In this document: positions 40,522 to 40,690 of the stretch, one piece after another
Numbering within the stretch: position 1 is the first letter of the stretch
Layout: the number at the start of each line of letters is the position of its first letter
IMG/VR virus record: IMGVR_UViG_3300014903_000004
Coordinates: 1-56,294 of that record
DNA: 56,294 nt
Source of the DNA: a virus
Taxonomy: Duplodnaviria; Caudoviricetes
Strand: one strand, 5' to 3'
The notes under the pieces: generated by a model
The model's input: only the letters and a program-made list of their open reading frames with translations
What the model was told of the DNA's origin: nothing
Database searches by the model: none
Made by a program: the position numbers and the translations under genes

Positions 40522-40558
40522 AAAAAAGGGCCGCATTTCAATTAAGAATGCGACCCTT
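40522..40558 (-). terminator. Attenuator terminator upstream of tRNA array 1
   Basis: AAGGGTCGCATT...AATGCGGCCCTT-TTTT, ending 7 nt before tRNA-Glu. Confidence 0.85.
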
Positions 40559-40581
40559 GGAAAAACTGTTATGCTAAAATA

Positions 40582-40656
40582 TCAAAACAGCAAGGATCGC
40601 GAATACATCTCAAACGTATTCGTAAAATTCTGCCATTGTATAAATATTTTCTTCAT
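40582..40656 (-). CDS. Attenuator leader peptide 1, MKKIFIQWQNFTNTFEMYSRSLLF
   Basis: 24-codon ORF; codons 4-16 all read by array-1 tRNAs; 3' part is complementary to the terminator 5' arm. Confidence 0.85.
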   Translation of the reverse strand: MKKIFIQWQNFTNTFEMYSRSLLF

Positions 40657-40661
40657 GATTT

Positions 40662-40690
40662 ACTATTACCTCATAAAAATTATTTGTCAA
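40662..40690 (-). promoter_or_regulatory. Putative sigma70 promoter for leader 1
   Basis: TTGACA-N17-AATAGT, 5 nt before the ATG (could give a leaderless mRNA); GAGGT SD also present. Confidence 0.55.

Follow-up and report, generated by a model that had tools for sequence, protein, structure and literature searches.

Putative leader-peptide attenuators ahead of two tRNA gene clusters in a tailed phage genome

Two tRNA gene clusters and the elements that precede them

The window analysed here, by which we mean the whole stretch of 56,294 bp, is the complete IMG/VR virus record IMGVR_UViG_3300014903_000004 and comes from a tailed phage. ARAGORN finds 13 tRNA genes in this genome, in agreement with Rfam. 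All of these genes reside on the minus strand in two clusters, called A and B, together with one additional tRNA-like element on the same strand. Both clusters lie between the terminase and portal genes, in the same orientation, within the head and packaging module (Table 1). The 187-nucleotide (nt) spacer between clusters A and B, ahead of cluster B, holds a candidate transcription attenuator that we call attenuator 1. A second candidate, attenuator 2, lies ahead of cluster A. Each carries a short open reading frame (ORF), an antiterminator and an intrinsic terminator.

Table 1. Coordinates of the features discussed, numbered from the first letter of the window (ΔG, predicted free energy; MFE, minimum free energy; SD, Shine-Dalgarno)
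Feature	Position	Strand	Evidence or remark
Leader ORF 1, MKKIFIQWQNFTNTFEMYSRSLLF	40656-40582	-	24 codons and TGA
Leader 1 sensor codons 4-16	40647-40609	-	ATA TTT ATA CAA TGG CAG AAT TTT ACG AAT ACG TTT GAG
Promoter-like -35 element TTGACA	40690-40685	-	with -10 AATAGT at 40667-40662, 17-nt spacer
-10-like element AATAGT	40667-40662	-	overlaps SD-like GAGGT at 40671-40667
Region 1, protector 5' strand	40650-40631	-	pairs with 40590-40575; MFE and prefix folds
Local hairpin, CGAATAC (40622-40616) with GTATTCG (40606-40600)	40622-40600	-	extends to 10 base pairs; ΔG -9.6
Region 2, antiterminator 5' arm (40600-40586) and protector 3' strand (40590-40575)	40600-40575	-	includes the stop codon TGA
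Region 3, antiterminator 3' arm, AACAG ... CAAGGGTCGC	40570-40550	-	overlaps the terminator 5' arm
Intrinsic terminator 1	40558-40522	-	13-pair stem, then T6 (40527-40522); ΔG -18.4 kcal/mol
Leader ORF 2, MKKCYLQSLSLLPSPLDCGGAGC (opening MKKCYLQSLSLLPSPL...)	41455-41384	-	23 codons; stop TGA at 41386-41384
Leader 2 sensor codons 4-16	41446-41408	-	TGT TAT CTA CAA TCG CTA TCG TTA CTG CCG AGT CCA CTG
Antiterminator 2 5' arm, GGAGGTGCT	41401-41393	-	partner strand at about 41350-41343, within the terminator 5' arm
Intrinsic terminator 2, GAAGCCCTC...GAGGGC	41352-41317	-	then T7; ΔG -17.9
tRNA cluster A: Pro(TGG), Leu(TAA), Leu(TAG), Ser(TGA), Ser(GCT), Cys(GCA)	41306-40786	-	ARAGORN, Rfam
tRNA-like element, non-canonical	40784-40698	-	directly 3' of tRNA-Cys; Rfam, fold
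tRNA cluster B: Glu(TTC), Thr(TGT), Asn(GTT), Trp(CCA), Phe(GAA), CAT (Ile2-like), Gln(TTG)	40514-39952	-	ARAGORN, Rfam
Small terminase	49865-49230	-	
Large terminase	49240-47750	-	
Portal	39905-38367	-	512-codon ORF starting at TTG
Head-morphogenesis protein	38203-37349	-	
Protease	33682-32885	-	
Major head protein	32882-31593	-	

The leader ORF of attenuator 1 begins with the ATG at 40656-40654, and its predicted peptide opens MKK-IFIQWQNFTNTFE. The sequence strings quoted in the original prediction for this site are all present on the minus strand where it placed them, including the run of sensor codons. However, that prediction ended the leader at the Glu codon, whereas the ORF continues for eight more codons (ATG TAT TCG CGA TCC TTG CTG TTT) to a TGA at 40584-40582.

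The antiterminator is formed by GCGATCCTTG (40600-40591) and CAAGGGTCGC (40559-40550), which pair over 10 bp with one U-G. Together with an inner CTGTT/AACAG helix this structure has a predicted ΔG of -17.9 kcal/mol. It has the strand GGGTCGC in common with the intrinsic terminator, which ends 7 nt upstream of tRNA-Glu. The terminator was found by folding and was not picked up by a consensus terminator scan. Both structures had been proposed beforehand, and both are borne out by the folding calculations.

A promoter-like site ahead of the leader agrees with the consensus at 10 of 12 positions, and would place the transcription start at or beside the leader ATG to give a leaderless mRNA. Sites of this kind are not in excess across the region (10 found versus 9.5 expected), and we therefore regard this promoter as a weak call. 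The SD-like GAGGT is positioned 10 nt ahead of the ATG.

Sequences from other datasets overlap the locus. A 191-nt seawater metagenome contig from another study matches positions 40448-40635 and is unchanged over 40524-40635. Its two substitutions and a 3-base insertion are located in or beside the T tract (40521-40523), which the insertion lengthens. Contigs from sequencing runs include two identical or near-identical pieces of 151 nt over cluster A (from two further runs) and one divergent 98-nt piece over 41510-41607, and most of the others are unrelated tRNA matches.

The codons of leader 1 mirror the tRNAs of cluster B

Sensor codons 4-16 of leader 1 are all readable by the seven tRNAs of cluster B (13/13), and each of the seven tRNAs is represented, a count that takes the CAT tRNA as a tRNA-Ile2 that reads ATA. 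Across its six frames, the 56-kb genome has no longer run of this kind than these 13 codons, and 0.0013 such runs are expected. When the spacer was shuffled 3000 times with its dinucleotide composition preserved, no shuffle attained the codon score of the leader (p 1.6e-8, with 4e-6 for the best shuffle). When the tRNA sets are swapped, leader 1 has 13/13 matches to set B and 0/13 to set A, and leader 2 has 12/13 to set A and 1/13 to set B. The original prediction named the amino acids to withhold in an assay of this leader, although it did not state that the leader codons mirror the downstream tRNAs.

The CAT tRNA at 40104-40029 is identical at 56 of 76 positions to an Escherichia coli tRNA encoded beside mug, which has a CAT anticodon and is annotated as tRNA-Ile in RefSeq. 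Identity rises to 38 of 42 over positions 5-46, which comprise the D and anticodon arms. Phage records annotate tRNAs that resemble it as Met. From this comparison the phage gene looks like a tRNA-Ile2, as had been suggested; in tRNAs of that type TilS modifies the CAU anticodon to lysidine. The argument first offered for that assignment, that ATA is a rare codon, does not hold for the phage, whose long ORFs use ATA for 509 of 1414 Ile codons (ATT 581, ATC 324; phage codons only). Among the same ORFs, ACG occurs 182 times versus 553 for ACA, and ACG is used twice in leader 1.

Alternative folds of attenuator 1 and the position of the ribosome

The 161-nt attenuator 1 region has a fold z-score of -3.88, and 0 of 200 shuffles fold as well. 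Its antiterminator duplex (-17.6, versus -9.3 +/- 2.0 in shuffles) is matched in energy by 4 of 1000 shuffled sequences. Prefix folding indicates an ordered series of structures. The protector, in which 40650-40631 pairs with 40590-40575, is the MFE structure in the first step (ΔG -18.7) and encloses the local hairpin. With region 3 added, the antiterminator becomes the minimum-energy fold (-25.8), and when region 4 is out the combination of protector and terminator takes its place (-36.4). Thus, the protector forms first in these folds, but a truncated free RNA that includes region 3 prefers the antiterminator.

The hairpin at 40622-40600 was originally assigned the role of the competing 1:2 helix. 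This hairpin exists. However, it is nested and overlaps the antiterminator by G40600 alone, and both structures coexist in constrained folds. It is therefore not the competing helix, and the predicted competitor is instead the protector. The local hairpin may serve as a pause hairpin for RNA polymerase.

To model the effect of a ribosome, we folded RNA cut off ahead of the terminator 3' arm, with a 28-nt mask placed about the A site. The antiterminator forms in full when the A site occupies any of codons 1-15, is largely retained at codon 16, and disappears from codon 17 through the stop codon. This result agrees with the earlier proposal that a ribosome at the stop codon would cover an antiterminator strand. 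Overall, the core of the original reading, a leader-peptide attenuator, stands in silico, whereas three of its details do not.

Attenuator 2, ahead of cluster A

The leader of attenuator 2 is the counterpart of leader 1 for the other cluster. Among its sensor codons, 12 of 13 are cognate to cluster A and the Tyr-like element, and every anticodon of cluster A is represented, the two Leu tRNAs by TTA and CTA/CTG and the two Ser tRNAs by TCG and AGT. No shuffle of the spacer reaches its codon score (0/3000), whether Tyr is counted or not. In the footprint model the antiterminator remains intact through codon 15 and is lost from codon 16. No clear protector was seen in the folds of attenuator 2. 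Its terminator ends 10 nt upstream of tRNA-Pro.

A strong intrinsic terminator (13-pair stem and T run) is located at 41645-41614 on the minus strand, after a 164-codon ORF at 41717-42211. Therefore, attenuator 2 needs a promoter of its own within 41613-41456.

Attenuators 1 (40675-40515) and 2 (41475-41307) carry a common inner-hairpin sequence, GCTGTT..TTGAT..CATAA, whereas their stems differ. The terminator loops are also alike (TCTTAATTGA in attenuator 1 versus TCTTAGTTGA in attenuator 2). These resemblances suggest that the two attenuators are paralogs whose helices have been kept through compensatory change.

The Tyr-like element, at 40784-40698, lacks a D arm but retains a fully paired 7-bp acceptor stem, a T arm reading TTCGATT and a terminal ACCA. 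A long helix bears a canonical-looking 7-nt loop, CUGUAAA, in which GUA would correspond to Tyr. The element matches the Rfam tRNA-Sec model below threshold (24.9 bits, E 0.11) and is not called by ARAGORN at default settings. Given the TAT codon in leader 2, it may be a Tyr tRNA.

A resemblance of 41317-41463 to MicX, a small RNA of Vibrio cholerae, was set aside. The match scores 26.2 bits against a gathering threshold of 75 and is confined to the hairpin and terminator. It is probably generic, although it could hint at a Vibrio-like host.

A third instance in a distant relative

An IMG/VR contig that we call L010 encodes a portal protein about 40% identical to that of the phage and carries tRNA-Asn, tRNA-Phe and tRNA-Pro. 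Directly upstream of these tRNAs, at 2115-2174, is a leader ORF of 19 codons, MKTIINNNFRNFPIFSEAF (NNNFRNFPIF). Eight of ten consecutive codons specify Asn, Phe or Pro, all three tRNAs are covered, and the codon score is attained in 4 of 3000 shuffles. Since this leader matches a tRNA set of its own, leader composition changes with the tRNA set. This apparent co-variation of leader and tRNAs is the strongest comparative evidence at hand.

The remaining parts of the arrangement are also present in L010. A promoter sequence TTGACA-16-TATAAT is found with the leader ATG six bases past the -10 element. The antiterminator pairs GGAGGCTT with AAGCCTCT, and 7 of 1000 shuffles reach the energy of this duplex. 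The terminator (ΔG -15.0, T8) abuts tRNA-Asn, ending about 1 nt before it. In the footprint model the antiterminator survives to codons 12-13 and is lost from codon 14, and in truncated free RNA the MFE structure pairs the 5' part of the leader with region 2.

All three loci have an intrinsic terminator and an antiterminator that shares one of its strands. In each case the antiterminator 5' arm is followed after 1-8 nt by the stop codon, and the sensor codons end where a stalled ribosome last spares the antiterminator in the footprint model. No room for a promoter is left between the terminator and the first tRNA at any of the three loci, where the T tract is followed by 7 nt (attenuator 1), 10 nt (attenuator 2) or about 1 nt (L010). 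Thus, read-through would be the sole route to these tRNAs. The sequence elements, the alternative pairings, the correspondence between codons and tRNAs, and the recurrence of the whole arrangement at three places are what the sequence analysis shows.

L010 also has a tRNA-like element at 1859-1962 on the plus strand. Its acceptor, D and T arms are normal, and about 35-40 extra bases are present in the anticodon region. It scores 22.3 bits (E 0.058) with the Rfam tRNA model. Downstream of this element are a terminator-like hairpin and then the attenuator promoter.

Control loci and the search for relatives

We scored each spacer upstream of a tRNA against the anticodons downstream of it. The control sample comprised 103 other loci, among them T5, PaoP5, ESCO13, Thalassa, Gundel_1, Fifi067, Slickus01 and Vibrio phages, of which 21 have tRNAs and yield 72 spacers including L010. 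Attenuators 1 and 2 and L010 have scores of 1e-8 to 6e-6. Among the 71 control spacers from the 20 loci other than L010, no score falls below 4.4e-4, and terminators are absent from the best-scoring ones. The codon-mirror leader design is rare among the sampled tRNA loci.

Small ORFs in the tRNA region of T5 were considered as analogues and rejected. The 17 spacers of that region give a best p of 4.4e-4, without a terminator.

Searches for further relatives returned little. A megablast search of 39900-41700 against cultured phages gave no match, blastn with the spacer gave 39-nt chance matches in T4-like phages only, and tblastn with the portal gave nothing above 27% identity. In the protein search the best portal relative (P0002) is 75% identical and is encoded on a 55.6-kb contig. 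Portal pattern searches in IMG/VR led to distant loci, among which L010 alone has tRNAs, and a portal-motif DNA pattern and a MuF alignment each recovered L010 only. A Joint Genome Institute metagenome contig (L006) has no tRNAs, no relative was found among GTDB genomes, and a search with a back-translated leader pattern gave 0 matches. Among 80 relatives of the large terminase TerL (48-86% identity), nine have tRNAs and none has such a leader. Searches with the protease and tRNA region of L010 revealed no close cultured relative. TerL homologues that are about 50% identical come from Yersinia, Pseudomonas and related genera, which suggests a proteobacterial host.

A proposed mechanism

We consider it likely that ribosome-mediated leader-peptide attenuation of transcription gates each tRNA cluster, with each leader sensing the codons of its own tRNAs. 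This assessment is based on anatomy, statistics and three concordant instances, from which we infer function. Translation of the ORF, stalling, conditional termination and the sign of the response are the parts of the model that would have to operate as follows.

RNA polymerase would transcribe leader 1 while a ribosome translates the MKK-IFIQWQNFTNTFE peptide. Scarcity of any one cognate aminoacyl-tRNA (Ile2 for ATA, Phe, Gln, Trp, Asn, Thr or Glu) would stall the ribosome within codons 4-16. The stalled ribosome would block region 1 from forming the protector and leave region 2 free. Region 2 could then form the antiterminator (40600-40586 with 40570-40550), and polymerase would read through into the genes from tRNA-Glu to tRNA-Gln. 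When decoding is smooth, the ribosome would instead reach codons 17-24 or the stop codon and mask region 2, so that the terminator forms and the transcript ends 7 nt ahead of the first tRNA. If there is no translation, the protector and terminator together would form the most stable structure. Overall, the circuit would provide negative feedback that maintains the decoding capacity for codons served by the phage's own tRNAs.

As for the purpose of such a circuit, we lean towards a homeostat of decoding capacity, in which the translated leader would sense decoding codon by codon and open the tRNA genes when one tRNA falls short. The shortage might arise from host codon bias, from the translation load of the phage, or from host anticodon nucleases.

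Several observations weigh against the attenuation model. The full-length RNA at equilibrium folds into the terminator at every ribosome position, so the model requires that kinetics during transcription decide the outcome, as they do in classical attenuators. The limits chosen for the ribosome footprint (A site -15 to +12) are an assumption. When we measured how far the terminator arm is sequestered, shuffled sequences reached the observed value in 9/400 cases for attenuator 1, which is marginal, in 43/400 for attenuator 2, and in 157/400 for L010, the last two being within chance. The antiterminator 2 duplex is moderately unusual, with 36 of 1000 shuffles reaching its energy, and neither a promoter scan nor a reading of 41613-41456 produced a convincing promoter for attenuator 2. 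Translation start signals are ambiguous, with either a leaderless start or a distant SD at attenuator 1 and L010.

The codon match also has exceptions. In leader 2, the tRNA for the CAA (Gln) codon is located in cluster B, and TAT is matched only by the non-canonical tRNA-like element. The leader of L010 includes two non-cognate codons, AGA and ATA. By the standard wobble rules, the G-ending sensor codons (ACG, CAG, GAG, TCG, CCG and CTG), with the exception of GAG, could also be read by host tRNAs with C34. Finally, there are three instances only, in two genomes. The 191-nt seawater contig exhibits conservation without co-variation, and the sequencing-run search listed no RNA run that contains the stretch.

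Alternative explanations

Other roles for these elements can be envisioned. The attenuators might mainly gate the late genes, from portal and head morphogenesis onwards, with the tRNAs as passengers and late transcription coupled to decoding. The arrays share a strand with these genes and are part of the head and packaging module, and a terminator scan from tRNA-Gln (39952) to the portal ATG (39869) revealed none, so that read-through would enter the portal gene. We nonetheless consider this unlikely. The sign of the response is wrong, because a scarce tRNA would raise late transcription, and a promoter-like sequence, TTTGCA-17-TATATT, is present at 39940-39912 between the tRNAs and the portal gene. 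Gating of late genes also leaves unexplained why each leader matches its own adjacent cluster. Moreover, the tRNA array of L010 occupies another position in the module, flanked by the genes for head morphogenesis and protease.

It is also conceivable, though we think it quite improbable, that the leaders are translated and act by another route. Stalling might expose the RNA to Rho or to RNases and thereby reduce tRNA output, which would give the opposite sign, or translation might guide the processing of tRNA precursors. The codon match tells us that decoding matters, not the direction of the response, and equilibrium folds always favour the terminator. However, an explicit antiterminator with one strand in common with the terminator is present at each of the three loci, as is a stop codon just 3' of the antiterminator 5' arm. 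This anatomy is specific to stall-induced read-through, and a route through Rho or RNases needs none of it.

We give very little credence to the idea that these are ordinary or leaky terminators between tRNA units, with small ORFs that are untranslated chance frames and a codon match that is coincidental or a by-product of AT composition: AT-rich spacers do favour AAT, TTT and ATA codons, and the promoter and SD signals are weak or ambiguous, but dinucleotide shuffles that keep composition reach the codon score in 0/3000, 0/3000 and 4/3000 cases, the match is cluster-specific in the swap test and includes rarely used codons that contain G or C (TGG, and ACG twice), 0/71 control spacers are alike, and a constitutive terminator 1-10 nt ahead of promoter-less tRNA genes would silence them.

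A T-box or another known RNA family was rejected for want of Rfam support. Scans with cmscan at E<=1 over 38000-43000, 41280-41500 and L010 1700-2600 returned tRNA and sub-threshold matches only (MicX being the best of the latter), with no match to the T-box model, and the curated Rfam leader families (His, Leu, Thr, Trp and others) have no match at gathering score.

Relationship to known attenuation systems

By analogy, the proposed mechanism is of the class of ribosome-mediated attenuators typified by trp, his, thr and ilv. Enterobacterial leaders of this class include those of the trp, his, leu and pheA attenuators, and some are multivalent, such as thr (Thr and Ile) and ilvGMEDA (Ile, Leu and Val). 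Like the thr and ilv leaders, the candidates described here have a short ORF, clustered codons for several amino acids, mutually exclusive protector, antiterminator and terminator pairings, and a stop codon placed such that a terminating ribosome would mask region 2. They differ in that phage tRNA genes rather than biosynthetic enzymes would be regulated, and in that seven codon families are represented by 1-3 codons each, mirroring the downstream anticodons.

A second comparison is with pheST of E. coli, where attenuation at the pheM leader controls a synthetase and senses one amino acid. In both cases a component of translation that serves the sensed codons would be under leader-peptide control, as feedback on decoding capacity. 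However, the product here is the tRNA itself and not a synthetase, and the sensor has seven specificities. T-box RNAs likewise respond to the supply of a specific tRNA through a choice between antiterminator and terminator, but they bind uncharged tRNA via a specifier loop without translation, whereas here a translated ORF would do the sensing. PMC3082878 deals with pheL.

The presence of tRNA genes in phages has been a matter of long debate (PMC10264068), and the roles proposed for phage tRNA arrays include codon compensation and evasion of tRNA-cleaving defences. The arrays of PMC10264068 and PMC11555353 resemble those reported here as cargo valued when host tRNAs are short or cleaved. They differ in that leader-peptide cis-regulation appears in neither abstract, and in the available text of PMC10264068 the terms leader, attenuat, terminator and promoter occur 0 times each. 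The literature retrieved makes no mention of how phage tRNA arrays are regulated.

According to the part of PMC2965389 consulted, leader-peptide systems had earlier been shown, to its authors' knowledge, in Proteobacteria and Actinobacteria only, and that paper itself describes such systems in Firmicutes. The occurrence in Proteobacteria and Actinobacteria, as stated in that part, fits a proteobacterial host for the phage. Our literature search and the term look-ups in the available texts of PMC10264068 and PMC2965389 uncovered no case of tRNA genes controlled by a leader peptide; they did not extend to subscription journals or supplements, where a precedent is possible.

The novelty lies in the target, the tRNA genes of a phage, and in the sensor, where up to seven codon families mirror the downstream anticodons. 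If the model is correct, these would be the first tRNA genes under leader-peptide attenuation, by way of a seven-input sensor, and classical attenuation would be extended from biosynthesis and synthetase genes to tRNA genes. The phage would then measure the shortage of exactly these tRNAs, which would support a role for the arrays in decoding capacity and provide a cis-regulatory tie between phage tRNA arrays and tRNA-targeting defence. The leaders would also constitute compact, portable sensors of codon-specific translation speed with up to seven inputs. In addition, the codon-mirror rule offers a simple search handle for further cases in phage and bacterial tRNA operons.

Other features of the genome

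The portal protein in the database begins at ATG 39869 (500 amino acids) and not at the TTG of the 512-codon ORF listed in Table 1.

A simple repeat of the CAG/CTG type is present at 47110-47260, inside a 226-codon ORF at 47015-47695. Depending on the frame, the repeat reads as poly-Q, poly-L or poly-C.

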